A stretch of DNA of 64,000 bases from a bacterium (GTDB taxonomy: Bacteria; Sysuimicrobiota; Sysuimicrobiia; Sysuimicrobiales; Segetimicrobiaceae): positions 3,093 through 67,092 of the forward strand of contig DATGFS010000042.1 in NCBI GenBank assembly GCA_035308905.1, written 5' to 3'. Each line of letters starts with the position of its first letter. Positions within the stretch are counted from its first letter, which is position 1. The notes below the pieces were generated by a model. That model made no database searches. It saw only the letters and a program-made list of their open reading frames with translations, and was not told the DNA's origin. The position numbers were made by a program, and so were the translations under genes. Positions 7,979 to 62,592 of the stretch are shown in pieces.

Positions 7979-9154
7979 TCAGTCCGGCGCCGGTCGCGGC
8001 TCGAGCACCTCCCCGCCGGCGATGGTCAGCACCGGTACGAGCCGCCGGCGTCCCGTCATCGTCCGTCCCGTCACATCCACGTACTCGAAGGCGCCGGTCC
8101 GGTCGTCGAGCACCGTGACGTCGGCCGGCGAACCCGGACGCAGCGTGCCGAGGTCGGGGCGGCCGATCGCGCGCGCCGGCGCGGACGTCGCCGCCGCGAT
8201 CACCCGCTCGAGCGGCATGCCGAGGCTCAGCAATTTGGACATCGTGGTCGGCAGATCATAGGCCGGGCCGTCGATGCACAGGGCGTGGACGTCGCTGCTG
8301 ATCACGTCCGGCAGGAACCCTTGAGCGAGGCACGCCTCGGCGCTTTCGAACGAGAAGCTTCCCATGCCGTGCCCGATGTCGATGACGACGCCGCGCTCCC
8401 GCGCTTCCCACAATTCCGGCAGGATGCGGCCCGTGACGCCGGGGTCGACCGTCGGGCCGTTCGGGAACGGCCGGAAGGCGTGGGTCAGAATGTCGCCCTT
8501 CCGCAGCAAGGGCAGGACCTCGCGCCGCGTCGGCGGCGGGTTGTCGGTGTGCACCATCATCCGGACGCCGAGCGCCTCTGCCGCCTGAAGGGTATGCTGC
8601 AGCGGCGGCAGCCCCCGGCCTTCCCCCGCGATGAGCCCCAGCCGTACTTTCATGCCGACGATGAGATCGCGGTGCTCGTGGCCGACGCGCACCGCTTCGT
8701 GCACGTTGAGCAGCCGCAGATCGATGGACTCGCCGACCATCACGCGCCGCGAGAACGCGAAGATGCCGGCAAAGCTGATGTTGAGAAACGGCAGCACCCG
8801 GACCTGCGCCCGCTCGATCAGGTGCCGGCGGAATCCCGGGAAATTACCGGCCCCGCTGCTGCCGGCGTCCACGTGCGTCGTCACGCCCGAGGCCGCCGAC
8901 AGCGCGTCCGGATCGACGCCGAGGGAGGTGCCGCCCCAATAGACGTGCGTGTGCAGATCGATCAGGCCGGGGGTGACGAGCCCGCTCCGGACGTCGATCG
9001 TGCGCCGGGCCCGCTCGTGCGGCAGCGAGGGTGCCACCGCGGCGATCCGTCCGCCGGCGATGGCCACGTCGGCCCTCCGCGGGCCCGCCTCGTCGCCGCC
9101 GGCGGCGGGATCGAGCACCGTCCCGCCGCTCAGCAGCAGATCATAGTCCGGCAC
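7979..9154 (-). CDS. Amidohydrolase family metal-dependent hydrolase (deacetylase/dihydroorotase-like)
   Basis: GLIDLHTHVYWGG…HVDAGSSGAGNF…: amidohydrolase HxH and downstream metal ligands. Confidence 0.7.
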   Translation of the reverse strand: MPDYDLLLSGGTVLDPAAGGDEAGPRRADVAIAGGRIAAVAPSLPHERARRTIDVRSGLVTPGLIDLHTHVYWGGTSLGVDPDALSAASGVTTHVDAGSSGAGNFPGFRRHLIERAQVRVLPFLNISFAGIFAFSRRVMVGESIDLRLLNVHEAVRVGHEHRDLIVGMKVRLGLIAGEGRGLPPLQHTLQAAEALGVRMMVHTDNPPPTRREVLPLLRKGDILTHAFRPFPNGPTVDPGVTGRILPELWEARERGVVIDIGHGMGSFSFESAEACLAQGFLPDVISSDVHALCIDGPAYDLPTTMSKLLSLGMPLERVIAAATSAPARAIGRPDLGTLRPGSPADVTVLDDRTGAFEYVDVTGRTMTGRRRLVPVLTIAGGEVLEPRPAPD

Positions 9155-9166
9155 GGGGCGCCTCCG

Positions 9167-9739
9167 CTATCCGGGCACCGGGCCCTCTGACGCCCGGCCG
9201 CCGGCCGTTCGCGAGGCGGCGCTCGACGCGCCGTGTTCCGCCAAGTACCGCCGCGACAACCGCACGTAGGCCGGGCCGGCGCGGGCGATCCACTGCGCCG
9301 CTACGCCCTCGAGCGGCTTGCGGATCCGGCAGGGCGTGCCGGCCGCGAGCGTGCGGGCCGGTATTTTGGTGCCGTCCGTGACGACGCTGCCCGCGGCGAT
9401 GAGCGCTTCCTCGCCGACGACGGCTTCATGGAGCACCACCGCATTCATGCCGACCAGCGCGCCGCGCTCGATCGTGCAGCCCTCGAGCACCGCGCCGTGG
9501 CCGATCGTGACGTCGTCGCCGATGACGGTGGCGATCCGGTCGGTGGTGTGCAGCACCGCGTTATCCTGCACGCTGGTCCGCGCGCCGATTTCGATTCGCC
9601 CCACGTCGCCGCGCAGCACCGCGCCGAACCAGACGCTGGCCTCGTCGCCGATCGTCACGTCGCCGATGATGGTGGCGCTCGGCGCGATGAAGGCGCTCTC
9701 GGCGATCCGCGGCGTGCGTCCGTGGAATGGAAGAATCAT
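9167..9739 (-). CDS. paaY: Gamma-carbonic-anhydrase-like hexapeptide-repeat protein (PaaY-like)
   Basis: Left-handed beta-helix hexapeptide repeats (IGDVTIGDEASVWFGAVLRGD…); sits in the paa cluster next to the CoA ligase and paaX, as PaaY does. Confidence 0.65.
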   Translation of the reverse strand: MILPFHGRTPRIAESAFIAPSATIIGDVTIGDEASVWFGAVLRGDVGRIEIGARTSVQDNAVLHTTDRIATVIGDDVTIGHGAVLEGCTIERGALVGMNAVVLHEAVVGEEALIAAGSVVTDGTKIPARTLAAGTPCRIRKPLEGVAAQWIARAGPAYVRLSRRYLAEHGASSAASRTAGGRASEGPVPG

Positions 9740-9876
9740 TCTCGATCCTCCTGTCGACCTGCGGGGCTCGCCGCATCGCTTCGCGAACGGGCCGCGGCCG
9801 GCCTGCTCCGTCCGATGCGGGGCCGTGCCGCGGGCGGCGAAGGAGACCGTCTTCGGGTACGCGAACCGACCGCGCC

Positions 9877-11469
9877 ATGGACTTGTCGCTCGACATCCCC
9901 GACGCGTTCAACGTCACGACCGCGTTCGTCGACCATAACCTCGAGACGGGCCGGGAACGCGCGGTGGCGATCCACGCGGACGATCGCCGCATCTCCTACG
10001 GCGAACTCGCCGCGCAGGTCAACCGCGCCGGGAACGCGCTGCGCGGGCTCGGCGTCCGGCCGGAGGAGCGGGTCTTTCTGCTCCTGCTCGATTCCCCGGA
10101 ATTCGCCTATCTGTTCTGGGGCGCGATCCGGATCGGCGCGGTGCCGGTCCCGACGAACACGGCGTTGCGGTCCCAGGACTATGCGTACATGCTGCGCGAC
10201 AGCCGCGCGCGCGTCCTGGTCGTCAGCGACGCGCTCCTTCCGGCCGTCGAGCCGGCGCTGCGGGACGCGCCGGATCTGCGCCACGTCGTGGTCGCCGGGA
10301 CGAACGCGGTGCCGGCCGTGCCCGGGCCCGCCCGGCACGCTCTCGCCGATCTGCTGTCGGCGGCGGACGATCGGCTCGCGCCGGCGCCGACCCACCGCGA
10401 CGAGCCGGCGTTCTGGTTGTGGAGCAGCGGGAGCACCGGCGCGCCGAAAGGCACCGTGCACCTGCACCACGACATGCTGTGGGCCGCGGAGCTGTACGGG
10501 CGGGGCGTGCTCGGGATCGAGCCCGACGACGTGTGCCTGTCGATCGCGAAGCTGTATTTCGCCTACGGCCTCGGCAACGGACTCTACTTTCCCCTGCGCG
10601 TCGGCGCGTCGACCGTGCTGTTTCCCGGCCGCTTCGACCCGCCGACGTACTTCGGGCTGATCGAGCGCCACCGGCCGACGCTGTTCTTCGGCGTGCCCAC
10701 GGCATATGCCGCGATGCTCGCCGCGGACGGCCCGAAGAGCCTCGGCGCGGTGCGGCGGTGTGTCTCGGCCGGCGAGCCGCTGCCGGCGGCGATCTTTACG
10801 CGGTGGAAAGAGCGGTTCGGGGTCGAGATCCTGGACGGGATCGGGTCGACCGAGGCCCTGCACATCTACATCAGCAACCGGCCCGGACGCGTGCGCCCCG
10901 GCAGCAGCGGCGAGGTGGTCCCGGGATATGAGGTGCGGATCGTGGACGAGGGCGGTCGCGACCTGCCGCCCGGCGAAATGGGCGACCTGCTCGTGCGCGG
11001 TGACAGCGTTGCCGCCTATTACTGGAACAAGCACGCGCAGACCCGGCGGACGTTCGCGGGCGAGTGGTTCCGGAGCGGCGACAAGTACTATCGCGACGAC
11101 GACGATTACTACTGGTACTGCGGCCGTTCGGACGACATGCTCAAAGCGGGCGGACAGTGGGTGTCCCCCGCGGAGGTCGAAGCGACGCTGATCCAGCACC
11201 CCGCGGTGCTCGAGTGCGGGGTCGTCGGCTGCGCGGACGCGGACGAACTGGTCAAGCCCTACGCCTTCGTCGTTCTGAAGGCCGATCAGACCGGGTCGGA
11301 CGCGCTCGCGCGCGAGATTCAGGCGTTCGTCCGCGACAAGATCGCGGCGTTCAAGTATCCGCGGTGGATCGAGTTCGTCCCGGACCTGCCGAAGACCGCC
11401 ACAGGCAAGATTCAGCGGTTCCGGCTGCGCGAACGGCTGTCGCCGCCGGCGGCCTCCGCTTCATCGTAG
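9877..11469 (+). CDS. Benzoate-CoA ligase family aryl-CoA ligase (AMP-forming)
   Basis: WSSGSTGAPKG (AMP-binding box I), YGLGNG, GDKYYRDDDDYYWYCGRSDDMLK, PKTATGKIQR. Confidence 0.8.
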   Translation: MDLSLDIPDAFNVTTAFVDHNLETGRERAVAIHADDRRISYGELAAQVNRAGNALRGLGVRPEERVFLLLLDSPEFAYLFWGAIRIGAVPVPTNTALRSQDYAYMLRDSRARVLVVSDALLPAVEPALRDAPDLRHVVVAGTNAVPAVPGPARHALADLLSAADDRLAPAPTHRDEPAFWLWSSGSTGAPKGTVHLHHDMLWAAELYGRGVLGIEPDDVCLSIAKLYFAYGLGNGLYFPLRVGASTVLFPGRFDPPTYFGLIERHRPTLFFGVPTAYAAMLAADGPKSLGAVRRCVSAGEPLPAAIFTRWKERFGVEILDGIGSTEALHIYISNRPGRVRPGSSGEVVPGYEVRIVDEGGRDLPPGEMGDLLVRGDSVAAYYWNKHAQTRRTFAGEWFRSGDKYYRDDDDYYWYCGRSDDMLKAGGQWVSPAEVEATLIQHPAVLECGVVGCADADELVKPYAFVVLKADQTGSDALAREIQAFVRDKIAAFKYPRWIEFVPDLPKTATGKIQRFRLRERLSPPAASASS

Positions 11470-45027: not shown

Positions 45028-45092
45028 GACCCGTCCGCGGCCGCCGCGTGCTTGAACTCCCCATAGGCCCGTGCTAGACTCCTCCCTGACTC

Positions 45093-45118: not shown

Positions 45119-45275
45119 CGCCAAAGTGACATGAGGAGCGGGACACCCTTCAGGGACGGCGGTATGACTCGGATGCTCCACTGCATCTGTACGAGCGGGA
45201 ACCGCCTGGCGGCGGAGGTGCGCCGCCGGGGTTAAGCGCGGGCGTCCGAATTTTCGTATTGCGTGCACCATGACT

Positions 45276-45311
45276 CGGCCGCGGCGCCCGTCCCGCGGCC
45301 GTGATGTTTTT
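45276..45311 (+). terminator. Terminator-like hairpin plus T5 within the cysO 5' leader (possible attenuator)
   Basis: Stem CGGCCGCGG / CCGCGGCCG (9 bp), 8-nt loop, then TGATG-TTTTT; located 27 nt upstream of the cysO ATG and about 160 nt downstream of the candidate promoter. Confidence 0.4.
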
Positions 45312-45337: not shown

Positions 45338-45610
45338 ATGGCGCAGGTATATCTGCCGACGCCGCTGCGCCGGCTGACGAACGGCCGGGCGCGCGTCCTC
45401 ACGGCGGGCGGCACGGTCGAAGAGGCGCTCGCCGATTTGGAACGGGAATTTCCCGGGCTGCGGGAGCAGCTGCGCGACCCAAACGGCGAGGTGCGCAGCT
45501 TCATCAACGTGTTCGTCAACGGGACGGAGATCCGGCGGCTGCAGGGCGCGGCAACCCCGGTCCATGCGACCGACGAGATCTCGATCGTTCCCGCAATGGC
45601 CGGAGGCTAG
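45338..45610 (+). CDS. cysO: MoaD/ThiS-family sulfur carrier protein (CysO-like), C-terminal GG
   Basis: 90 aa beta-grasp ending …VPAMAGG; genomic context with cysM and mec. Confidence 0.75.
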   Translation: MAQVYLPTPLRRLTNGRARVLTAGGTVEEALADLEREFPGLREQLRDPNGEVRSFINVFVNGTEIRRLQGAATPVHATDEISIVPAMAGG

Positions 45611-45671
45611 CGCGGTGGAGCTCTCGCTGCGCCGCCGCCCGCCCGCGGCACCGCCTGCCGGTGCGGGGGCC

Positions 45672-46481
45672 ATGCCGGCGCTGCGGGTCTGGGCGACGGA
45701 CCGCCTGCTGCTGCACGAGGAGGCGGACGCCGCGCGGGTCCGGCGCCTCGAGGACGCGCTTCGGCGCGACGGCGTGCTGCGCAATCCGCCGATCGTCGCG
45801 CCCCTCGAGGACGGACGCGCCGTCGTGCTCGACGGCGCGAACCGCGTCACCGCGCTTCGCGCGCTCGGGCTGCCCCACGTGGTCGCGCAGCCGGTCGCCT
45901 ACGACGATCCGCACGTCGGCCTCTTGGTTTGGCGGCACTATGCGGCGGAGGCTGCTCCGGGTGCGCTCCGCGCGGCCGTGTCGGCCGCGGGCTTTGGGAT
46001 CACGGCGCCGGCCGGGGACGAGGCCGGCGCGGAGTCGCAAATCGCCGCGGGCGGCCTTGCCGCGATCGTCGATGCCCGGGGCGGGGTCGTGCTCCGGTGC
46101 GCCGGCGGGCCGGCGGCCAACGCCGACGCGCTGTGCCGGTTGACGGCGCTCTACCGGGACGGACGGCCGGTCCACCGCGTCGAGGCCGGCAGGCTCGATG
46201 ACCTGCGCGGCGCTTACGGCCCTGGGGCGCTGGTGCTCTTCCGCCGCTTCGAGAAATCGGACATTCTCGATCTCAGCCTTGCCGGCGGGCGCCTGCCCGC
46301 CGGGATCACGCGGCACGTCATTCCGGGACGGGCGCTGCGCGTGAACACGCCGCTCGCCTGGCTGGCGGATGGGATCGACCTGGGCGTCAAGCAGGCCGCG
46401 CTGGACGCGCAGGTCCAGCAGCGATGGCAGGCGCACGGCGTGCGCTACTACGCCGAGCCCACGTTCTTGTTCGACGAGTAG
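45672..46481 (+). CDS. ParB/sulfiredoxin-fold (ParB N-terminal-like) domain protein of unknown function
   Basis: N-terminus …VLRNPPIVAPLEDGRAVVLDGANRVTALRALGLPHVV… resembles the ParB/Srx NTP-binding motif; alternative GTG start at 45615. Confidence 0.45.
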   Translation: MPALRVWATDRLLLHEEADAARVRRLEDALRRDGVLRNPPIVAPLEDGRAVVLDGANRVTALRALGLPHVVAQPVAYDDPHVGLLVWRHYAAEAAPGALRAAVSAAGFGITAPAGDEAGAESQIAAGGLAAIVDARGGVVLRCAGGPAANADALCRLTALYRDGRPVHRVEAGRLDDLRGAYGPGALVLFRRFEKSDILDLSLAGGRLPAGITRHVIPGRALRVNTPLAWLADGIDLGVKQAALDAQVQQRWQAHGVRYYAEPTFLFDE

Positions 46482-46484
46482 GGG

Positions 46485-47450
46485 ATGACGGCTCCGTCCC
46501 GCGCCACCCGCGGTCCGTCCCCGCGCCCGGCGCACCGGCCGGCGGGAACGTCTCTGCTCGACCAGATCGGCAACACCCCGCTGCTGCGGCTCGAGCGCGT
46601 GACGGCCTCGCTTCCGTCCGCGGTGGAAGTCTACGTGAAAGCGGAGTGGTTCAATCCCGGCGGGTCCGTCAAGGACCGGCCGGTTCTACGCATGCTCACC
46701 GACGCGGAGCGCGACGGGCGCCTCAGGTCGGGCGTCACCATTCTCGACTCTACCTCCGGCAACGCCGGGATCGCCTATGCAATGATCGGCGCCGTGAAGG
46801 GCTATCCCGTGGAGCTCGTGATGCCCGCGAGCGCGAGCGAGGAGCGCAAGCGGATCATCGCGGCCTACGGCGCGCGCATTGTTCTCTCCGATCCACTGGA
46901 GGGCAGCGACGGGGCGATCTTGCTCGCCCGGCAGGTCCACGCCGGCTCCCCGGACCGGTACTTCAAGCCGGACCAGTACAATAATCCGTCCAATCCGCTC
47001 GCCCACTACGACACGACGGCGGTCGAGATCCTCGAGCAGACGTCCGGCCGGGTGACGCACTTTGTCGCCGGTCTCGGTACAACCGGGACCGTGGTCGGCG
47101 CGGGCCGGCGGCTGCATGAAGCGGACCCGCGCATCCGGGTCGTGGCCGTGGAACCGGACGCGCCCCTCCACGGGCTCGAAGGGCTCAAGCACATCGCCTC
47201 GTCCATCGTGCCGGGAATCTACGATCCCGCGGTACACGACGATAAGGTAAGTGTCACGACCGAAGCCGGGTACGCGATGGCGCGGCGGCTTGCGCGGGAG
47301 GAAGGCATGCTGGTCGGCGAGTCCGCGGGCGCCGCCGTGGAGGCGGCGCTGCATGTCGCGGCGGATCTTCCTCGCGGGGTGATCGTGGTGATCGCCCCCG
47401 ACGCGGGGGACCGCTACTTCAGTACGGCGCTGTGGCGCGGCCTGACCTGA
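46485..47450 (+). CDS. cysM: PLP-dependent cysteine synthase (CysM-type, CysO-thiocarboxylate/O-phosphoserine-dependent)
   Basis: …NPGGSVKDR…TSGNAGIAYA…GTTGT… PLP fold-type II motifs. Confidence 0.8.
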   Translation: MTAPSRATRGPSPRPAHRPAGTSLLDQIGNTPLLRLERVTASLPSAVEVYVKAEWFNPGGSVKDRPVLRMLTDAERDGRLRSGVTILDSTSGNAGIAYAMIGAVKGYPVELVMPASASEERKRIIAAYGARIVLSDPLEGSDGAILLARQVHAGSPDRYFKPDQYNNPSNPLAHYDTTAVEILEQTSGRVTHFVAGLGTTGTVVGAGRRLHEADPRIRVVAVEPDAPLHGLEGLKHIASSIVPGIYDPAVHDDKVSVTTEAGYAMARRLAREEGMLVGESAGAAVEAALHVAADLPRGVIVVIAPDAGDRYFSTALWRGLT

Positions 47451-47503
47451 GCGCGGCGATTCGTGTTACAATTGTGGGCGGAAGGATCGGTGGATGCCAG
47501 GCG

Positions 47504-47941
47504 GTGGCGGTCCGGCTGACACAAGCGCAGTTCGAACAGATTCTCGCTCAAGCGCGCGCCGAAGCGCCGCATGAGTGCTGCGGGCTGTTGCTGGGCCGGG
47601 GCGATGCCGTAGAGGAAGTGTTCGCAGGGCGGAACGTGGACGAGACACCCGAAACGCGCTACGTCATGGATCCGTTGGATGAGTTGCGGGCGTTTCGCCT
47701 GATGGACGAGCGCGGGTGGCAACTAGTCGGAATCTATCATTCCCATCCGCTGACGGAGGCTTACCCGAGCGAGACCGACAAGAACCGCGCGCGTGACGAC
47801 AAGGACCGACCGCTCTTTCCGGGTGCGCGCTACGTGATCGTCTCGCTGAAGGAACCGGGGAATCCTCGGATTCGAGCCTTCCGGCTCGACGGGGCGGACA
47901 AGGCAAAATCGGTCCCCGAAGAGGACGTGGTGGTGACGTGA
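47504..47941 (+). CDS. mec: JAMM/MPN+ metalloprotease (Mec+/CysO-cysteine peptidase)
   Basis: …ECCGLLLG…, JAMM motif [14 protein letters not shown]; alternative GTG starts at 47432 and 47474. Confidence 0.75.
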
Positions 47942-48366
47942 AGGTCAGCACTCGGGCGGAATACGGAATTCGCGCGCTGATCGACCTCGCTCAGCACTTC
48001 GGAGAGGGGCCGGTGCAGAGCCACGAGATCGCGCGCCGCCAGGGCCTTCCCGAGCCGTACCTCAACCAGCTGCTGACGACCCTGCGGCGGGCGGGCCTCG
48101 TGCAGAGCAAGCGCGGCCCGAGCGGGGGCCACATGCTCGCGCGCTCGCCGGAAGGCGTCACGATCGGCGAGGCCTTTCTCGCTCTCGAGGGCAGCGTCGC
48201 GCCCTGGCTGTGCGTGGAGGACGAGGACGCGCACTGCATCTACGCACCGGGGTGCGGGCTGCGGCCCGTCTGGCAGGCCGTCAAGGCCGCGACGGAGGAC
48301 GTGCTCAACCGCACCACCCTCGCCGACGTCGTCGGGCGCCCGCTGGCGCCGCTCACGAAGGCGTGA
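47938..48366 (+). CDS. Rrf2 family (CymR/IscR-like) transcriptional regulator with three-Cys cluster
   Basis: wHTH N-terminus ([15 protein letters not shown]…), [15 protein letters not shown]; GTGA overlap with mec. Confidence 0.8.
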
Positions 48367-49028
48367 CGGCCGCGCCCCGCGGCGGCTGCCAGCACGTCGA
48401 GGCTCCGTCCCGCGCGCTCGAGCCGGCGTCTTCCGACGCGGGCGGGCCCGCCGCGCCGGGTTCCCGCGACACGTACGAGCATCTGATCTCCGCCCACCTC
48501 GACGGACTCTACAGCACCGCCCGCCGGCTCACGCGCCACGCCGCGTCCGCGGAGGACCTCGTCCAGGAGACGATGCTCAAGGCGTGGCGGTCCTTCCACA
48601 CGTTTCAGCCGGGCACCAACGTCCGGGCGTGGCTCTACCGGATTCTCATGAACACGTACTTCGACGCGCAGCGCAAGCGCTCGCGCGAGCCGGAGATCGT
48701 CGCCGCGGACGACGTCGGCGACCTCTACCTCTACAGCCGGGCGCGCGACGGCGCCGCGCTCGGCGAATCCGGTAATCCGGAGTTCCTGGTGCTCGACCAC
48801 ATCCTGGACGCCGAGATACGGGAGAGCCTCGAGGCGCTGCCCGTGCCGTTCCTTGCCGCGGTGCTGCTCGTCGACGTCGACGGGTTCGCGTACAAGGAGG
48901 CGGCCGACGTGCTCGGCGTTCCGGTCGGCACGGTGATGTCGCGGCTCTACCGCGGCCGGCACGCGCTGCGGCGCCGGCTCGTCGACTATGTCCGCCGCCG
49001 GCGTCTCGTCCACGGGGGCGGCGTATGA
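48363..49028 (+). CDS. ECF (sigma-70 family, SigH/SigR-like) RNA polymerase sigma factor
   Basis: Region 2 [17 protein letters not shown]…[12 protein letters not shown], region 4 …[34 protein letters not shown]; start uncertain. Confidence 0.75.
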
Positions 49029-49249
49029 ACTGCCGGGAATGCCTCGATCAGATGTGGCAGTACATCGACGGCGAGCTGGACATCGCGTCGAGCGATGAGC
49101 TGCAGCGCCACCTCGCGCAGTGCCGCGAGTGTTTCTCCCAGGCCGAGCTCGAGCGCCGCCTCAAAGACATGATGCGGCGCGCGTGCGGCGGCGAGCACGC
49201 GCCCGCGCGTCTGCGCGAGCGCCTCGCGAAGATTCTGCAGCTCTATTAG
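49025..49249 (+). CDS. Zinc-binding anti-sigma factor (ZAS family, RsrA/RshA-like)
   Basis: [10 protein letters not shown]…HLAQCRECF: HxxxCxxC ZAS motif; ATGA overlap with the sigma factor stop. Confidence 0.7.
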
Positions 49250-55231: not shown

Positions 55232-55308
<77 letters not shown>

Positions 55309-55466
55309 AATAGTGAAGGCCTGGGACGCCCGGAACGCTTGATACTCAAGCGTTTCGGGCTCTCGGCTTTTCTGGGGGGTTTGTTACCTGGGTGCCCGCC
55401 GGTACCCGGGAATACCGGCCAGAGGGGTCCGCACAGGGGTCCGCACAAAATCGCAGGAGGGCTCGG

Positions 55467-56789
55467 GTGGCCAAGCTTGTCCGGGAAGGAGGCAACGGCA
55501 GTCGGCAGGTCCGGCGGCCGGACGGACACGCGGAGCAATATGCACGCTCGCCCCGTTGGCGCGTCCGCTTCGTTGTGTCCTATCCGGACGGCTCGCGGAC
55601 GATCCGCTCGAAATTGACGCCGCGGAAGGCCGAGGCTGGCCTCCTGCGAACCGAGGCCAGTCGCTTCGAGCGCCTGAGCCGGACCGGCACGGCGACCCAG
55701 CAGGATCTCGGGCACTTCCTACGCTTGGGCCTCATCTCCAGAGATGACTACCTGCGACTCGGCGGCACGCAGCTCGACATGAGTTGGGACGAGGTGCTCT
55801 CGACCTATATCTCGAGCTCATACGGCCGGTGCCGGTACTTCACCCACCGGAACAACGCGGCTCGCGCGGAGCGCATCGTGGCGTTCCTTCGTGAGCGGGC
55901 AGCCGTTGCGCGAATCGCCGATGAGGACATCCGCGCCTACCTGACGTCCCGATCCTCCGAAGTCAGCAAGAAGACGCTGAAGATCGAGCTCGACGTCGCG
56001 CGACAGTTGTTGGATCACCCCGTCGGCCGCGGGGTCCTCCGGCAGCCGCCGTGGAACCTGCTCATGTCCGCGAACCCGGCGCGGCGTGTCAACGGGTTCG
56101 AGAGCACCGTCGCCCGCACACGCTTCCCGCGGGCGCTCAGCTACGAGGAGGACCTGCAGCTCCTGGCCCTGGTGCGAGATATGGAAACCGCCTCACCCGC
56201 GCTGGCGGGAGCAATCCTGCTTCTTCGGTTCTACGGTCTCCGTCGGGCGGAGCTCCAGTACCTCACCCATGCGGACCTGGTCGGATCGGCGGTGCTCGTG
56301 CAAGCCAAGGCGGTCCGCCCGGATCTGCTTGGGCCGAGCCGGTCCAGCGCCTCGCCGGCCGGCCGCCATCGCAACGTCGTCGAGCGGCGGGAAACGCGGG
56401 ACCAGTTCAAGGACGGCATGTGGCGCGTCAAGGATCATGAGGCGCGGACCATCTGGATGCCCGGGGCCGGCGACGATCCAGATCCGAGGCCGATGCAGCG
56501 CATCCGCCCGCTGCTGCCGTCCAAAACCGCGGGTCGGTTCGTCCTCGGCGGCCACCATACGCTGCATCGCGACGCGATTTCAGCGGCGGTGGAGCGGGTG
56601 CTCCACCGAATCGATGCCGCTCTCACCACCCACTGTCTGCGGCACAGCTTTGCGACGTCGCTCATCGGGCGCGGCGTCAATGTGGTGCGTGTGAAGGAGT
56701 TGATGGGGCACAGCGACCTGAAGACGACGCTGGTGTACACACACCTACCACGCCGCGGCGATCCCGACGACCTGCTCGATCACCTGTAG
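55467..56789 (+). CDS. int: Tyrosine-type site-specific recombinase/phage integrase
   Basis: C-terminal catalytic motifs …HCLRHSFATSLIGRGVNVVRVKELMGHSDLKTTLVYTHL; GTG start 7 nt after AGGAGGG. Confidence 0.85.
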   Translation: MAKLVREGGNGSRQVRRPDGHAEQYARSPRWRVRFVVSYPDGSRTIRSKLTPRKAEAGLLRTEASRFERLSRTGTATQQDLGHFLRLGLISRDDYLRLGGTQLDMSWDEVLSTYISSSYGRCRYFTHRNNAARAERIVAFLRERAAVARIADEDIRAYLTSRSSEVSKKTLKIELDVARQLLDHPVGRGVLRQPPWNLLMSANPARRVNGFESTVARTRFPRALSYEEDLQLLALVRDMETASPALAGAILLLRFYGLRRAELQYLTHADLVGSAVLVQAKAVRPDLLGPSRSSASPAGRHRNVVERRETRDQFKDGMWRVKDHEARTIWMPGAGDDPDPRPMQRIRPLLPSKTAGRFVLGGHHTLHRDAISAAVERVLHRIDAALTTHCLRHSFATSLIGRGVNVVRVKELMGHSDLKTTLVYTHLPRRGDPDDLLDHL

Positions 56790-56919
56790 GCCTATCATCT
56801 GGTCGTTGGAGTCAAACGCAAGACCTATCCGGGCTCCTCGTTGCGCTCGGGCGGGAATGGCCCATCTGCGGTCCCTATTGTGTGGTGGGGGCACCGGTCA
56901 ACGACGAGGAGGGTTCCAC

Positions 56920-57180
56920 ATGAGTAGCGAGCAGAACATCGATATAACCGTGGTCGTGTCGGGGCAAGCCGAGCGGCTAAAAATCAATGTGCATCAGACG
57001 CTTGAGCAACTTGTCCGGGATGCGCTTCAGAGGAGTGGCAACCAGGGGCAGCCACCGTCGGACTGGGAGCTAAGGACGGAGAACGGCACCTTGCTCAACC
57101 AGAGCTTGACGGTCGCGGCCGCCGGCCTCAAGGATGGGATGACGCTGTTCCTCAGCCCGAAGGCCGGCGCCGGCGGGTAG
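56920..57180 (+). CDS. Ubiquitin-like beta-grasp protein ending in Gly-Gly (BilA-like Ubl)
   Basis: 86 aa; ubiquitin-like alternating hydrophobic pattern (IDITVVVSG…LKINVHQTLEQL…GMTLFL) and C-terminal …PKAGAGG; RBS GAGGAGGG. Confidence 0.65.
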   Translation: MSSEQNIDITVVVSGQAERLKINVHQTLEQLVRDALQRSGNQGQPPSDWELRTENGTLLNQSLTVAAAGLKDGMTLFLSPKAGAGG

Positions 57181-57189
57181 GAACGGCTG

Positions 57190-57903
57190 ATGGTCCTTGT
57201 TGCACCGGAGGTCACGCGGCGGAAGGTCGAGCGGGAACTCAATCTTTGGCGTGAGAACGAGGAAATCTATCGCCGCCGCGGGTGGATCCTCCTCGGCCAC
57301 CACGACCAAGAAGTCGACGTGGGTTTCCTCGGACAGCTTCCGCTCGGCGCCCGGCCGATCCCGGTCATGGCCGCCTGCGTGAGGATCGACTTCACCAACT
57401 TCGATCTTTGGGCTCCATCGGTCGAATTTATCGACCCCATGACCGGCGAGTATACCCCGCCGATCGTGCAGGCGCTCGTCGAAACTGACGAGGGGCCGCG
57501 CAATCTCATCGTCTTCAGCCACCCGGACACGAACCGGCCGTTCTTCTGCGTCCCCGGCATCCGCCAATACCACGAACACCCGCAGCACTCCGGCGACTCC
57601 TGGTTCCTGCACCGCAACACGGGCGAGGGCAGCTTGGCGACGATCTGCGATCGCGTGTGGCGTGCTATGGCGCGAAACCTTCTCGGCATCCATCTCGAGA
57701 TGCAGACGGTGCCGGGGCAGCTAAAGCTCCAACTCCGCCTCCAGAACGCGCCGGGCGAGGTGGTACCAGTATTGTGGGAGAACATCAGGCAGGCTCAGCA
57801 GGCGACGCGCGTTGCCCAGGCGGGCGGCGTTGTAGGTCAACCCATCCCGCCGGAAATCCTCGCCATGCTCGGGATCGGTTCCCCGCCACAGGTGCCAAAG
57901 TGA
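57190..57903 (+). CDS. E2-like ubiquitin-conjugating (UBC-fold) protein (BilB-like)
   Basis: N-terminal helix (RRKVERELNLWREN…), YP..PP-like strands (VRIDFTNFDLWAPSVEFIDPMTGEYTPP), and HPD followed nine residues later by Cys (FSHPDTNRPFFCVPGI), reminiscent of the E2 HPN…C active site. Confidence 0.55.
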   Translation: MVLVAPEVTRRKVERELNLWRENEEIYRRRGWILLGHHDQEVDVGFLGQLPLGARPIPVMAACVRIDFTNFDLWAPSVEFIDPMTGEYTPPIVQALVETDEGPRNLIVFSHPDTNRPFFCVPGIRQYHEHPQHSGDSWFLHRNTGEGSLATICDRVWRAMARNLLGIHLEMQTVPGQLKLQLRLQNAPGEVVPVLWENIRQAQQATRVAQAGGVVGQPIPPEILAMLGIGSPPQVPK

Positions 57904-58379
57904 CGCTCGAAGGCGTCCGCGAGTTCATCGTCCCACTGCAGCTCCTCGATCAGGTCCTCGAAGCGCTCCAGGAGGCTGGACGCCACGGCTACGAGGCGTT
58001 CATCCTGCTGGGCGGTCACCTCGTTGGGGAGAAGCGCTTCGAGTTCCTGTCCGTGTACTTGCCTGAGCAGAAGACCAGTCGGGGTGCGGAGGGATTACTC
58101 ATCGTCGTCGACGGCGATGCGCTTTTCCGCGCCAATCGCGCCTTCTACCGGCGTGGCCAAATCCTCGGCGCTCAGATCCACAGCCACCCAGCCTCTGCCT
58201 ACCACTCGTCGACCGATGATACCTATCCGCTAGTGACCCTATTGGGCGGTCTATCGGGCGTTGTCCCTGATTTCGGCGAGGGCGGGCGTGCTCGGCTAGA
58301 CTACTGGGCCTGGTACCGGCTGGTGGGGGTTGGACAGTGGGCGCCAATTGGCGATGAAACAAGGATCACGTTTCGATGA
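57900..58379 (+). CDS. JAMM/JAB (MPN+) isopeptidase (BilC-like deubiquitinase)
   Basis: Conserved Glu (GYEAFILLGGH) and JAMM motif HSHPASAYHSSTDD; GTGA overlap with the upstream gene. Confidence 0.7.
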   Translation: MTLEGVREFIVPLQLLDQVLEALQEAGRHGYEAFILLGGHLVGEKRFEFLSVYLPEQKTSRGAEGLLIVVDGDALFRANRAFYRRGQILGAQIHSHPASAYHSSTDDTYPLVTLLGGLSGVVPDFGEGGRARLDYWAWYRLVGVGQWAPIGDETRITFR

Positions 58380-59974
58380 GCCTTCCCCGCTTCCTTGACC
58401 GCGTCGTCGATGCGGCCGCGCCGGTGCTCGGTGGGATTGATCGCTCAGCAATGCGGGCCAAGCTCGAGAGTTCCTCGATCGCGCTCGTTGCTGGTGACAA
58501 GGCCGCTGAAGGCGCGGGCCGCGCCGGCTTCCTTCTCGCGGCGAACCTCGCCGCGCGGATTTACCCACGCATCTGTCTTCGCGGTCCCAACGAGCTGATA
58601 CGCGCAGCCGAGAGTGAAATCATCCTCATCAACCCGCGCGCCGATATGACCGGCGGCAACGATACGACTACACCGACGCTGTCGTACGAGACCGTCGCCG
58701 ACGCGGACGCGGCCGTATCAGTTTTCGCCCGCGGTTGGAATGTTTACGTTGATACTACCCCTGATGACCATACTCCAGCCGCAGCCTCGGCGGCGCTCGC
58801 CGCGGCGGCGTTCGGGATGGGGGATCTCTTCCGCCTCGTTTTCGCCGCGGAACTAGGTGACCGTGGCCGCCGTCGGCCGCAACCCGGCTCACTCAACCTC
58901 GTCACGCTCGGCGACCCACAGCACCTGCCGGTGCCGGCCGGTGTCGAGGTGTCGACGTTTCGCCTCATCGGCGTCGGGGCGATCGGGCAAGCCACGGCCC
59001 AAACGCTCGCCCTCTCCGGCGTCCGGGGAACCATGGTCGCGGTTGATCCCGAGAAGGTGGTGCTGTCAAACCTGCAGCGCTACGTGCTCACGCGCGACGC
59101 GGACGTCGACGCCGCGAAGGTTGAGTTGGTCCGAGAGCGACTGGACCAGTCCACACTCCAGATCCTCCCGGTAGCTGCCATCTGGCACGCGGACCTTGTT
59201 GAGGAACAACTGCCAACGTTAGTCGCGGTCGATTCCGCAGAGGCGCGGATCGCTGTCCAGGCGAGCCTGCCTGGACCGATCTACAATGCGTGGACGCAGC
59301 CAGCCGACATCGGCTGGTCGCGACACGAGCATTTCGGCGAGGAGCCGTGCCTCGCATGCCTCTACTGGCCGGACCGCAAGCGGCCAAGTCGGCATGAGCA
59401 GATTGCCGCCGCGTTCCGTCAGCACCCGCTGCGGGTTCTAGTCTACCTCCTCCGGCGCTTACCCGTCGGCTTGCCGGTACCGCCGGGCGGGATCCCTGTC
59501 GTGCCCGGACTAGACGCCCCGGCCGACGCTGATCGATGGCTCCAGACGGCGCTCGTCGACGACATCGCCGCGGCGGCTGGTGTCGACCCCTCCGAGCTCG
59601 TCTCTTGGCGTGAGCGGTCATTAGCTGACGTGTACCAGGACGGCATATGCGGTGGGACCCTCCTACACCTGAACATCGGTGAAGCGCCGCGTGAAGTCGT
59701 CGTTCCGCTTGCTCATCAATCAGCACTTGCCGGCGTGATGCTGGCAACGGAATTCATCGTTGCCGAGGTCCCTGAACTCGCAGCTGCACGGCCGTCCACG
59801 ATCGAGGCTCGCTACGACCCGCTTGCGGGGCTACCGCAGGTCCTCGCGCGCCCCCGAATGCGCGCCGATGGGTGTCTTTGCGCAGACACGTTCTTCCGCG
59901 CCGCCCATCGCGAAAGGACGGCCGGAGGCGACGGGGACGCCGAACCCGAAATGCTCAAGGGTGAGGTGACCTAA
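58376..59974 (+). CDS. E1-like ThiF/MoeB-family activating enzyme with about 190-aa N-terminal extension (BilD-like)
   Basis: Rossmann nucleotide loop FRLIGVGAIGQATAQTLALSG…VAVDPEKVVLSNLQRY, downstream CxxC (EEPCLACLY); ATGA overlap with the JAB gene. Confidence 0.7.
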   Translation: MSLPRFLDRVVDAAAPVLGGIDRSAMRAKLESSSIALVAGDKAAEGAGRAGFLLAANLAARIYPRICLRGPNELIRAAESEIILINPRADMTGGNDTTTPTLSYETVADADAAVSVFARGWNVYVDTTPDDHTPAAASAALAAAAFGMGDLFRLVFAAELGDRGRRRPQPGSLNLVTLGDPQHLPVPAGVEVSTFRLIGVGAIGQATAQTLALSGVRGTMVAVDPEKVVLSNLQRYVLTRDADVDAAKVELVRERLDQSTLQILPVAAIWHADLVEEQLPTLVAVDSAEARIAVQASLPGPIYNAWTQPADIGWSRHEHFGEEPCLACLYWPDRKRPSRHEQIAAAFRQHPLRVLVYLLRRLPVGLPVPPGGIPVVPGLDAPADADRWLQTALVDDIAAAAGVDPSELVSWRERSLADVYQDGICGGTLLHLNIGEAPREVVVPLAHQSALAGVMLATEFIVAEVPELAAARPSTIEARYDPLAGLPQVLARPRMRADGCLCADTFFRAAHRERTAGGDGDAEPEMLKGEVT

Positions 59975-59978
59975 TTAG

Positions 59979-60704
59979 GTGGACGCCCTTGAAGAACTCA
60001 ACCGGCGCGGAACGGCGCTCCTGGCCGAGCTCGCGGCTAACCCTGAAAGCGAGTGCTGGCGCCAGTTCGACGCCCTCTTCTACGAGATCATTTGGCGGTG
60101 GATCCGTGCAAACCATGCGACGATGGCAGCCCGCGTCGCCCGGTACCTCCAGGTCGAGTGGATCGGCGGCGTGGATATCCTTCCCGAGGAAGTCGACGAA
60201 GTGGCCCACGAGGCCACTAAAGTTGCGCTTCAGCGGGTGCGGAAGAATGCCGCGCGTTTCAACCCGAACAGAGGTACGCCGGTCCAGTGGGTCATAGGCG
60301 CCGCCGCTTATGCCTATGTCGACGAGGCAAGGAAGGTTTTGAAGGCGCGCCAACCGGATAAGTTCGTCGCGCTTGGGGATCTCGATGAGCCGCCTGATCC
60401 GACCCCGACACCTGAAGAAAGAGTCCTCCGCGGAATGGAGGACACTGCAGCGCTCGATGATGCCGCCCGCCATCTCACCGAGAAGGAGTTCACGGCCATT
60501 CGCCTTGTAGTAACGGCCGGATACAGCTACGCCGAAGTGGCGAGGATGATCTTCGGCGATGAAAACATGACGAAGCAGGTCGATGGGCTTCTGACGCGCG
60601 CGAAAGCTAAGTTGACCGAAGCATGGGCAAATAGAAAACAACAGGCGCGCACTGACGCAACGCCGACGGCTGCCCGCCGTGCCAAGGAGGAGGGAGACCT
60701 ATGA
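59979..60704 (+). CDS. Sigma-70 family (ECF-like) sigma factor-like protein encoded within the island
   Basis: Region-2-like …TPVQWVIGAAAYAYVDEARK… and region-4 HTH LTEKEFTAIRLVVTAGYSYAEVARMIFGDENMTKQVDGLLTRAKAKL; GTG start 5 nt after the E1 stop. Confidence 0.5.
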   Translation: MDALEELNRRGTALLAELAANPESECWRQFDALFYEIIWRWIRANHATMAARVARYLQVEWIGGVDILPEEVDEVAHEATKVALQRVRKNAARFNPNRGTPVQWVIGAAAYAYVDEARKVLKARQPDKFVALGDLDEPPDPTPTPEERVLRGMEDTAALDDAARHLTEKEFTAIRLVVTAGYSYAEVARMIFGDENMTKQVDGLLTRAKAKLTEAWANRKQQARTDATPTAARRAKEEGDL

Positions 60705-60934
60705 GCGAGGGCGTCATCCGTGGGTTACCGGCTGCTCTCGCGGTGCTACTGCGCGACCCGAGTGTGATCGTCCCACAGGACGCGGCGGTCTTCGAGTTGA
60801 TCGCCGCGTGGGCCAAGGCTCCAACTGCGACAGCAAGCGCCGACGTTATGGTGACATCGGATGGCAAACTATTCGAAACGCTTCGCCGGCAGACTAAAAT
60901 GACGTCATCGACTATAATGGCGGGTTGCCGTTAG
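60701..60934 (+). CDS. Hypothetical small protein translationally coupled to the sigma-like gene (candidate anti-sigma/partner)
   Basis: ATGA overlap with the upstream stop; 77 aa; no recognizable motif. Confidence 0.35.
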   Translation: MSEGVIRGLPAALAVLLRDPSVIVPQDAAVFELIAAWAKAPTATASADVMVTSDGKLFETLRRQTKMTSSTIMAGCR

Positions 60935-61040
60935 TTCGACCGGACAGCTTGGGTTGCCGCGAAAGGTCACGTCGCGAAACCGACACAGGAGCCGTGCAGT
61001 ATTGGGCTCCCCTCGAAAAACCATGCAGCATTAATTCTAA

Positions 61041-61550
61041 TCATTCTCCCGATCGCCGCCACTGACGAAGACGGTCGTTAACTTCCGCTTGCGGCAGCCA
61101 TCGGTTGTTTTCCACCATCCTCCGTAGCGCGGCCGCCGCCTGTTGACGAGGCACGAGGTCGTTGCGAACCAAGAAATCGAGTATCCATAGCGTGCCGTGG
61201 ACGGGAATGCCTTCCTGTTCGGCTGCCTCACGAAGGCTTTTGTCGCTCGTGACAAGAGTAGCGTGCTCGGCCTTTGCCAGGACGAGGCAAAACAGGTCGG
61301 CGCGAGACGGCCCGAGATATCGTTGCGCCAGCGCGACAACTTCCTCGACCTGGTCGCCGGTCAGTTCCCGCTTTTGCAGCCCAAACCGGAGCAGTCTCTC
61401 CGCATGCGCTGGTTCCAGTTCTTCTTCCACCACGACATCGGGTGCCAGCCACACGGTCGGGAGTCGGAAGACGTACCGTGTTATCCCGCCTTCGCGCAGG
61501 TCAACCAGCAGCGTGGTGTCCGAGACGCACGGCGATGGGAATCCCGCCAT
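61041..61550 (-). CDS. PIN domain nuclease (VapC-like)
   Basis: N-terminal Asp (VSDTTLLVDL), central acidic residues, C-terminal T-x-D (LVTSDKSL); downstream of and overlapping the HTH-ImmA gene. Confidence 0.5.
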   Translation of the reverse strand: MAGFPSPCVSDTTLLVDLREGGITRYVFRLPTVWLAPDVVVEEELEPAHAERLLRFGLQKRELTGDQVEEVVALAQRYLGPSRADLFCLVLAKAEHATLVTSDKSLREAAEQEGIPVHGTLWILDFLVRNDLVPRQQAAAALRRMVENNRWLPQAEVNDRLRQWRRSGE

Positions 61551-62592
61551 GATCGCGTTTGACCTCGCGCTGGAAATCCTTGAACGACATGCCTAGCAAT
61601 TCTGTCGCGCGGCTCTCTGAAATGGCGCCCTCGGACCAAGCATGCATGACCAACTGCTCGAGGCGCTCCGAACGTTCCGGCGGGTATGGATCTCCCGGCT
61701 CTTTGACATGCCACCCTTGTGCCTTAAACGCTTTGAAGAGGGCTAAGGCATCTGCGTCGGTGAGGATGCCAAGATCCTTCGCGCGGTAGATCCAGGCTTG
61801 CATGCTAAGTCCGTACTTGTGTTTCAGTAGATGGAGCTCGTACGGCGTGAATGTATGCCGCCGGTCCCCAATCTCAGCCACGGCGGCTTGCCGCGGGACA
61901 ACAAAGGCGCCGGCAAAACGAAAGGCCATCCTTTCCTCATCGACACCCGGACCGGGTTTGAGAAGAAGATGTCCTAGTTCGTGCGCGAGATTCATCCGCT
62001 GACGATCTCCCGGTAGACTCTCTTTTAGCGCAATAACCGGGGTCTGCTTCTCGGGACCGAGCCAAAAGGCGCATGCGTCAAACTTGTGATGCGCATCCAC
62101 GGCGCCTACCTTGATACCGTGGTCCTCGAGCAGCTTTGTTAGGTTTTCGATTGGGTCGACGCCCACTTGCCAGGCCTTCCGTAGAGCCTCGGCCGCCGTT
62201 TCGGTATCAGGCAACTGCCCGATCGCGAACGGAAATCCCTCGGGATACGTGAAGGGTACCTGTCGGCGGGTAAGGGTCTCGATTTCAAGATATCGTTCGA
62301 GCCACTCTCGTACCCTGGCGAGCGCGGCCTCCTCTTTGCGTCGCGGAAGAGCGGCACGCTTCCGGAAAACAGGTTGCAGCACAATGTCACTCTTGGGACG
62401 CACGAAGTACTCGACTCGGACGCCCAGTGCTTTCGCGAGGCGCAGAAGCACTCCGGACCCCGGCTTGTCTAGGCCGCGCTCATACTTGGAGATTGCCTGA
62501 GCGCTCACACCTACACGGTCGGCGAGATCGCGAAGGCTCAGGCCGGCCATGAGACGGGCTTCCTTAATGCGCTCTCCAACCGTCGTAATCAC
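61501..62592 (-). CDS. XRE-family HTH fused to ImmA/IrrE (M78) zinc metallopeptidase domain
   Basis: HTH (GERIKEARLMAGLSLRDLADRVGVSAQAISKYERG) followed by HEXXH (LAHELGHLLL). Confidence 0.75.
   Translation of the reverse strand: MITTVGERIKEARLMAGLSLRDLADRVGVSAQAISKYERGLDKPGSGVLLRLAKALGVRVEYFVRPKSDIVLQPVFRKRAALPRRKEEAALARVREWLERYLEIETLTRRQVPFTYPEGFPFAIGQLPDTETAAEALRKAWQVGVDPIENLTKLLEDHGIKVGAVDAHHKFDACAFWLGPEKQTPVIALKESLPGDRQRMNLAHELGHLLLKPGPGVDEERMAFRFAGAFVVPRQAAVAEIGDRRHTFTPYELHLLKHKYGLSMQAWIYRAKDLGILTDADALALFKAFKAQGWHVKEPGDPYPPERSERLEQLVMHAWSEGAISESRATELLGMSFKDFQREVKRDHGGIPIAVRLGHHAAG

Follow-up and report, generated by a model that had tools for sequence, protein, structure and literature searches.

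A predicted free L-serine kinase of the SbnI/SerK family encoded between cysO and cysM in a Ca. Sysuimicrobiota-like bacterium

Free serine kinases (EC 2.7.1.225/226), which phosphorylate L-serine to O-phospho-L-serine (OPS), are represented by two isolated cases, one from staphylococcal siderophore synthesis and the other from hyperthermophilic archaea. SbnI of Staphylococcus aureus and S. pseudintermedius (PDB 5UJE, 5UJD, 6NR6) is ATP-dependent, is encoded beside SbnA, a pyridoxal phosphate (PLP) enzyme that consumes OPS, and serves siderophore synthesis (L-Dap, staphyloferrin B) as well as haem-responsive regulation. SerK of Thermococcus kodakarensis (PDB 5X0B) is ADP-dependent and starts a route that leads from serine via OPS to cysteine (PMC5120207), with free sulfide as the sulfur donor of an OPS sulfhydrylase; according to Makino et al., no clear-cut bacterial homologs of SerK were known. 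A further system, Mec-CysO-CysM of Mycobacterium tuberculosis (Rv1334-1336), relies on a carrier protein that ends in Gly-Gly, a cysteine synthase and a JAMM protease, and its operon contains no kinase. CysM of this type has been reviewed as specific to actinobacteria (PMC9547175). Here, we describe a 64-kb stretch of DNA (the window; positions 3,093 to 67,092 of contig DATGFS010000042.1, GenBank assembly GCA_035308905.1) from a lineage that is Ca. Sysuimicrobiota-like and not actinobacterial. In this window, cysO, cysM and mec occur in an order different from that in M. tuberculosis, and a gene for a ParB-like protein is located between cysO and cysM. We consider it likely that the product of this gene (45615-46481) is a free L-serine kinase of the SbnI/SerK family that supplies OPS to the neighbouring CysM, and that the operon is a self-contained serine-to-cysteine module. 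The assignment is based on sequence homology, the modelled fold, the conservation of catalytic residues, synteny and further gene contexts. From these we infer the kinase activity, the phosphate donor, the OPS preference of the window CysM and the regulatory logic of the operon.

The ParB-like protein had originally been predicted, from the DNA sequence, to carry a nucleotide-using N-terminal domain of the ParB/sulfiredoxin (Srx) type. A Pfam scan of its open reading frame (ORF) returned zero matches at E<=0.01, and the precomputed Pfam field was empty for all of the 120 homologs listed. When all PDB chains were searched with the sequence, SbnI was the sole match (5UJE, 1e-12). A profile of 34 homologs retrieved SbnI (2.8e-27), T. 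kodakarensis SerK (5X0B, 7e-8) and the Pyrococcus SerK ortholog, and no other PDB family. In NCBIfam, the sole families matched were again SbnI (2.8e-14) and SerK (9.6e-8). An AlphaFold2 (AF2) model built on the alignment reached a pLDDT of 87.5 and a pTM of 0.84, and all nine top-ranked PDB structures in a Foldseek comparison were SbnI, SerK or PF0380 (1VK1), with alignments over both domains with E values of 3e-17 to 7e-13 and TM scores of 0.60-0.80 (0.66-0.80 for SbnI). ParB, Noc and Srx aligned with the N-terminal ~80 residues alone, at E ~1e-3. The predicted ParB/Srx likeness is therefore real but confined to this N-terminal portion, and the likeness over the full length is to SbnI and SerK. 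As modelled, the protein has the two-domain serine-kinase fold, in which a ParB/Srx-like N-domain is followed by a kinase-specific C-domain, and as a whole it belongs to the serine-kinase branch of the ParB/Srx fold.

The same comparison sets the protein apart from the better-known members of this fold. With the ParB and Noc CTPase clamps and with sulfiredoxin it has in common the nucleotide-binding fold of ~80 N-terminal residues and a G-x-x-R motif. Unlike the clamps, however, it reads LDGANR in place of GERRxR, has no helix-turn-helix (HTH) detectable by Pfam and lacks a dimerisation domain. Sulfiredoxin, a single-domain protein of ~100 aa with its catalytic Cys in G-C-H-R, differs in that the window motif is G-A-N-R, without Cys, and in that the window protein has an additional C-terminal domain, which is of the serine-kinase type.

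The catalytic residues of SbnI and SerK are retained. Counted from the GTG at 45615, the key residues are H34-E35, D73-G-A-N-R77, W106, H108 and T232-R233-H234. In the alignment, E35 corresponds to E30 of SerK and E20 of SbnI, and D73 of the LDGANR motif to D58 of SbnI. Among 81 family members, which come from several phyla, eight positions (H34, E35, P58, D73, G74, R77, W106 and H108) do not vary at all (81/81), and T232-R233-H234, the counterpart of TRH in SerK, varies hardly at all. As relayed in PMC9641203 from Verstraete et al. 2018, the kinase activity of SbnI needs Glu20 and Asp58; for SerK, the mutants E30A and E30Q are named in PDB entry titles. SbnI, the closest relative by both sequence and fold, has the same two-domain architecture and shares LHE (E20), R-x-P, DGxxR (D58), W-x-H and PAG(I/V)TR with the window protein. 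SerK and PF0380 match it over the full-length fold and have the Glu (E30) and TRH in common with it.

The position of the gene is also conserved. A one-genome-per-species scan of GTDB recovered 371 genomes with a relative; the locus counts given here cover 80 of these, whose neighbourhoods were read by tblastn. The order cysO-kinase-cysM-mec is kept in ~31/80 loci, usually followed by rrf2, with kinase identities of ~41-85% across the loci that keep this synteny, and five further loci have kinase-mec-rrf2. Overall, rrf2 follows mec in 33 loci, and in 27 of these 33 a sigma/anti-sigma pair comes after rrf2. The carriers that have a name are Ca. Sysuimicrobiota and metagenome-assembled genomes (MAGs) that bear the label Armatimonadota or Bacillota; Actinobacteria are not among them. 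Neighbour-joining placed the cysO/cysM-linked kinases in one large clade, and a small second group (loci L022, L039 and L076), which also has cysO/cysM nearby, stands apart from it. At E<=1e-10, 1,100 members of the family were retrieved from among 1.84 billion cluster representatives. The absence of a Pfam domain and the label "hypothetical protein" in public records might suggest a passenger gene that came to lie between cysO and cysM by chance, or a degenerate ParB remnant. Retention of the position in ~31 species-level genomes at 41-85% identity, together with the invariant motifs, the translational coupling and the confident two-domain model, leaves this reading a negligible probability, and the conserved synteny excludes it. 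We regard the gene as a conserved and functionally integrated member of the operon.

The four genes of the predicted operon are all present on the + strand at or close to the positions first assigned to them, and the identities of CysO, CysM and the JAMM protease were confirmed by Pfam (ThiS, PALP and Prok-JAB). CysO is a carrier of the ThiS/MoaD fold with a C-terminal Gly-Gly and Mec has the HxHx7Sx2D JAMM motif, both of which characterise the CysO pathway. For CysM, the M. tuberculosis sequence that was used in the alignment is 100% identical to 3DWG_A and 3DWI_A. Arg220 of this enzyme is said, from work by Agren et al. in 2008, to bind the phosphate of OPS. PMC9547175 and PMC11361707 make no mention of this role. 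At the corresponding column, the window CysM has a Lys, and the kinase-linked CysM orthologs, the window included, have K in 30 cases and R in two; CBS-like paralogs have Glu and a CysK-like paralog has Gln. To judge from the alignment, a Lys or Arg at this position would be consistent with an anionic leaving group.

On this basis, we propose the following mechanism. The ParB/Srx-like N-domain of the kinase would bind a nucleotide, with ATP a likelier phosphate donor than ADP or CTP. Glu35 would act as the base, and Asp73 of DGxxR would assist the transfer of a phosphate onto the hydroxyl group in the side chain of free L-serine, such that serine and the nucleoside triphosphate (NTP) yield OPS. 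With its PLP, CysM would then eliminate the phosphate of OPS, and the aminoacrylate so formed would be attacked by the CysO thiocarboxylate (CysO-COSH). The resulting CysO-cysteine adduct would be hydrolysed by the JAMM protease Mec into cysteine and regenerated CysO, and a MoeZ-type E1/rhodanese, whose gene would lie elsewhere, would restore the thiocarboxylate on the latter. Phosphorylation would hence stand in both for acetylation by CysE and for OPS from the SerA/SerC route. This scheme differs from the SerK route in the sulfur donor, which would be the CysO thiocarboxylate instead of free sulfide. It differs from the SbnI system in that it would make cysteine for primary metabolism by means of a protein thiocarboxylate, although in both cases the kinase is encoded next to the PLP enzyme that uses, or would use, its product. 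The gene had originally been regarded as lying outside the described pathway. Since OPS is a known substrate of CysM-type synthases, however, its predicted product would feed directly into that pathway.

An alternative function put forward at the outset was that of an NTP-dependent CysO activator or sulfur-transfer component, which would replace the MoeZ-type E1. Neither regular-expression searches nor tblastn revealed a MoeZ-type E1 (ThiF plus rhodanese) within the 64-kb window. The initial observation that no E1-like activator is nearby thus holds for the MoeZ type, but not for ThiF-family proteins in general, as a BilD-like E1 is encoded 10.4 kb downstream; this sole ThiF-family gene of the window has no rhodanese domain and sits in a separate tRNA/integrase island. 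An activating role would also be favoured by the ThiS-kinase and JAB-kinase fusions (P0128 and P0137) and by the fact that Srx, a distant relative, activates a sulfur oxyacid with ATP. Against this, the full-length homologs are small-molecule serine kinases, and the motif equivalent to that of Srx (DGANR) contains no Cys. The family is moreover associated with TrpB2, SerC or phosphoglycerate dehydrogenase in contexts that lack CysO. MoeZ-type E1s are found in the flanks of two relatives (L075 and L076), and in L076 the kinase, cysO, cysM and a ThiF+rhodanese E1 share one cluster, which indicates that the kinase does not replace the E1. The E1 of M. tuberculosis is likewise unlinked, with moeZR (Rv3206c) encoded apart from cysO (Rv1335) and cysM (Rv1336; PMC3227635). 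We therefore regard a substitute for the E1 as very unlikely. A serine kinase, in contrast, would feed the CysO pathway as described, because phosphorylation of serine yields a known CysM substrate.

Additional support for a serine substrate, independent of homology, comes from the other gene contexts of the family. In 12 loci from Chloroflexota and Burkholderiales (Pseudomonadota), the kinase gene is directly adjoined by one for the TrpB-like enzyme TrpB2 (NF009057/TIGR01415, above cut-off). The orientation differs, TrpB2 being located upstream in ten loci (L016, L017, L019, L020, L024, L029, L030, L031, L054 and L064), downstream in L048 and divergent in L073, and a gene for the alpha subunit of indolepyruvate:ferredoxin oxidoreductase is nearby in 7 of the 12. 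TrpB2 enzymes are OPS-dependent tryptophan synthases, according to Busch 2014 as cited in PMC11917138. A full-length cystathionine beta-synthase (CBS; TIGR01137, above cut-off) is encoded immediately upstream of the kinase in ten loci, of which six read cysO-CBS-kinase-cysM-mec (L025, L033, L035, L053, L067 and L075) and four CBS-kinase (L040, L044, L052 and L072). These CBS enzymes may use O-phosphoserine as well. L035 also contains a cystathionine gamma-synthase/lyase gene. In L077, a Chloroflexota MAG, serC (phosphoserine transaminase, above cut-off; 8846-9991, + strand) shares 4 nt with the end of the kinase gene. By analogy with what has been proposed for T. kodakarensis, this suggests a catabolic use of the kinase, in which serine would be converted via OPS to 3-phosphohydroxypyruvate.

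Gene fusions tell a similar story. P0196, P0204 and P0219 combine an N-terminal phosphoglycerate-dehydrogenase-like domain with a C-terminal kinase, and the 2-hydroxyacid-dehydrogenase Pfam domains of these three recur in P0237; these four proteins are 582-603 aa long. The JAB-kinase fusion P0137 has 438 aa and the ThiS-kinase fusion P0128 has 371 aa. In the latter, the Gly-Gly end of the ThiS/CysO-like part would be exposed only after cleavage by a JAB protease, unless the fusion is a gene-calling artefact. Every conserved partner of the predicted kinase makes or uses serine or O-phosphoserine. It is quite conceivable, if short of likely, that the predicted kinase clade is a general O-phosphoserine supply module, which many uncultured and some cultured lineages pair with CysM plus the CysO thiocarboxylate for cysteine, with TrpB2 for tryptophan and possibly with CBS, which provides OPS as the activated serine donor in place of serine or O-acetylserine, and which, in the clade of the window, is additionally controlled by a terminator-type cysteine leader-peptide attenuator of a kind not described so far.

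Several observations weigh against the kinase assignment. The window protein is only ~16-21% identical to SbnI or SerK (~20% for SbnI, 16-18% for SerK), and its NCBIfam scores fall far below the equivalog cut-offs (SbnI NF033589, 53.1 vs 350 bits; SerK NF053625, 31.5 vs 380 bits), which makes the identity of the substrate an extrapolation. The motif DGANR, which is DGVHR in SbnI and DGHHR in SerK, has exchanged His for Asn in most family members, and the window protein further differs from SbnI in a conserved C-terminal tail, YAEPTFLFDE. By sequence, then, it falls into a separate bacterial clade of the SbnI/SerK family and is an ortholog of neither. In ~22/80 loci the kinase has no informative neighbour. 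The window CysM is not especially close to that of M. tuberculosis (3e-58) and is nearer to generic CysK/CysM proteins (2EGU, 7e-71). Furthermore, Lys or Arg at the Arg220 position is known from CysM enzymes of the O-acetylserine/thiosulfate type too, so this column does not decide the OPS preference of the window CysM. Finally, SbnI is not only a kinase but also a DNA- and haem-binding regulator.

Two alternatives arise from these points. One is a kinase of the same fold that acts on another substrate, such as homoserine, threonine or D-serine, or that runs in reverse from OPS to serine plus NTP, as has been proposed for the DUF1015 "SerBK" proteins. The low identity to SbnI and SerK and the exchange of His for Asn would permit this; an archaeal SerK-like protein bound CTP, such that nucleotide specificity varies within the fold (PMC12704722), and DUF1015 kinases appear to replace SerB (bioRxiv 10.1101/2024.10.14.618325). 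However, the conserved partners CysM, TrpB2, CBS, SerC and phosphoglycerate dehydrogenase all use or make O-phosphoserine or serine, and the partner in the window belongs to the CysK/CysM family and not to the threonine-synthase-like type that handles O-phosphohomoserine. We thus consider a different substrate or direction improbable.

The other alternative, also raised originally, is that the protein is mainly a transcriptional regulator of the cys operon, SbnI- or VirB-like, whose kinase activity is lost or secondary. Because SbnI doubles as a DNA/haem-binding regulator, a regulatory role for the window protein retains some weight; SbnI is annotated as a bifunctional regulator/OPS synthase. 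ParB-fold proteins, moreover, often bind DNA (PMC12704722). Nevertheless, the two-domain homology is to serine kinases, the catalytic Glu and Asp are invariant in 81 sequences from several phyla, the ParB likeness is restricted to the N-domain, and Pfam detected no HTH. In addition, the operon already encodes an Rrf2 regulator and a sigma/anti-sigma pair, and the fusion to phosphoglycerate dehydrogenase as well as the adjacency to SerC and TrpB2 are metabolic contexts. A primarily regulatory function is hence not supported and appears distinctly improbable to us, and a free serine kinase remains the preferred assignment.

The enzyme family and its reaction are already known, and the automatic annotation of JGI labels some of the homologs, most of which are "hypothetical protein" in public records, "L-serine kinase (ATP)". 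The arrangement of the pathway has not been described before. In the literature searched, we found no paper that joins a serine kinase with CysO/CysM, a thiocarboxylate carrier or TrpB2, although such an absence is no proof, and ParB goes unmentioned in a survey of ThiS/JAB/E1 neighbourhoods from 2006. If the assignment is correct, a dedicated kinase would complete a serine-to-cysteine module wherever the SerA/SerC route is not the source of OPS, and neither CysE nor O-acetylserine would be needed. Free serine kinases would then no longer be confined to two isolated cases but would form a broad bacterial family of primary metabolism, which Pfam does not cover. The CysO-type cysteine route is seen well beyond Actinobacteria. 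The synteny of kinase and TrpB2 may explain both the OPS preference of TrpB2 and the source of its substrate, and the family is a candidate "serK" step for gap filling of the GapMind type.

The features of the window are listed in Table 1. From cysO to the anti-sigma gene, the + strand between 45.3 and 49.3 kb holds a run of closely packed genes, with a G+C content of 69-77% around the cysO-kinase-cysM-mec part. The kinase ORF was initially taken to be 45672-46481. Its frame and its stop at 46481 are unchanged, but a start at GTG 45615 (288 aa) is likelier than one at ATG 45672 (269 aa). This choice is favoured by the N-terminal M[DE]LS[LV]R, which is kept in homologs, by the JGI gene call of 288 aa on an identical metagenome contig, and by a Shine-Dalgarno (SD) sequence GGAGG located 8 nt 5' of the GTG, which derives from the Gly-Gly codons of cysO (GGAGGC). 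For mec, the JGI gene call indicates that the start is probably 47504 and not 47432. Only 4 nt separate cysO from the kinase gene, whose SD lies inside cysO, and 3 nt separate the kinase gene from cysM. Further downstream, 4-nt overlaps occur between the mec stop and rrf2 and between the rrf2 stop and the sigma gene; the anti-sigma gene also overlaps the sigma gene.

Table 1. Positions of the features of the window, from the leader of the cys operon to the downstream island.
Feature	Position	Strand	Remarks
Putative promoter-like element	45052-45080	+	TTGAAC 45052-45057, 17-nt spacer, TAGACT 45075-45080; read from sequence; below consensus-scan threshold
Leader ORF	45173-45235	+	MLHCICTSGNRLAAEVRRRG, then stop; two Cys codons inside invariant 13-nt block
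Terminator-like hairpin and T-run	45276-45311	+	GC-rich hairpin 45276-45301, then T-run; 27 nt 5' of cysO start; terminator scan
cysO	45338-45610	+	90 aa, ends AMAGG then TAG; Pfam ThiS 2e-14; top PDB match M. tuberculosis CysO 3DWG_C 1.3e-14
Predicted free L-serine kinase (SbnI/SerK family; ParB/Srx-like N-domain and C-domain)	45615-46481	+	288 aa
cysM, PLP-dependent cysteine synthase	46485-47450	+	PALP 5e-68; TIGR01138 356 bits vs cut-off 394 (just below); PLP lysine in GGSVKDR
mec, JAMM/MPN+ metalloprotease	47504-47941	+	HSHPx7SxxD; Prok-JAB 2.6e-24; PDB 2KKS 1e-23; start from JGI gene call (145 aa)
Rrf2-family regulator (CymR/IscR-like)	47938-48366	+	three clustered Cys; Pfam Rrf2 7.7e-38; NCBIfam CymR 4e-30, below cut-off
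ECF-type sigma-70 factor	48363-49028	+	Sigma70_r2 and r4_2; start from JGI gene call
Zinc-binding anti-sigma factor, zf-HC2	49025-49249	+	HxxxCxxC in HLAQCREC; Pfam zf-HC2 6.6e-11
tRNA	55232-55305		island
Phage-type integrase	55392-56789		island
Metal_CEHH protein	57190-57903		island
JAB/BilC-like protein	57657-58379		island
ThiF/BilD-like E1	58376-59974		island
HTH+M78 RmrA-like gene	61501-62592	-	island

Upstream of cysO, a region of 310 nt contains, in this order, the promoter-like element, a short leader ORF, a hairpin with T-run and the ribosome-binding site of cysO. The equivalent of the promoter-like element, CTTGACA...GCTAGACT, is kept in the alignment of related loci. In all 15 loci that bear the conserved block CTG(C/T)ATCTGTACG, the block lies in an ORF of 18-23 codons (37 codons in L003 when counted from the nearest upstream in-frame ATG). 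The encoded C-I-C-T is invariant in these 15 leader ORFs, which have two to four Cys codons, and the sole variation inside the block is the synonymous exchange of TGC and TGT. The hairpin is kept in 13 loci, where its covariation is weak and comes down to a single compensatory pair. We read the leader ORF with its Cys codons and the hairpin as probably a cysteine-responsive leader-peptide attenuator, which would support the view that the whole operon, including the kinase, responds to cysteine supply. A scan of metagenomes for the leader suffered from a pattern that was too loose and was saturated with chance matches; only one of 120 loci (L184) was genuine.

A riboswitch or T-box was also considered for this region and was rejected, as the leader had no match at the gathering score in Rfam and nothing relevant at E<5, its stability was unexceptional compared with shuffled sequences (z = -1.0), the covariation is weak and the conserved block is coding. 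A classical 1:2/2:3/3:4 antiterminator was not recovered; whether the simulated ribosome covered the Cys codons or the stop codon, the minimum free energy (MFE) structure had the terminator hairpin in every state. The closest described counterparts are the polycysteine small ORF (sORF) attenuators of mycobacteria (Canestrari et al., bioRxiv 10.1101/834739), in which a short upstream ORF rich in Cys codons likewise precedes cysteine-biosynthesis genes. The mycobacterial sORFs are leaderless, unlike the leader ORF of the window, in which the Cys codons are moreover arranged as C-I-C instead of a run. The mycobacterial elements act as translational attenuators (bioRxiv 10.1101/834739), whereas the intrinsic-terminator-like hairpin that follows the window leader ORF suggests transcriptional attenuation here. 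Expression of the operon would probably be tied to cysteine and thiol status through the leader ORF with its hairpin, the Rrf2 regulator and the ECF sigma/zinc anti-sigma pair. The succession of rrf2, sigma and anti-sigma genes (47938-49249, + strand) calls to mind how SigH/SigR control the cysO operon of actinobacteria in thiol stress.

Further downstream, the segment from 55232 to 62592, to which the BilD-like E1 belongs, resembles an integrated island that carries a ubiquitin-like defence module of the Bil-like kind.

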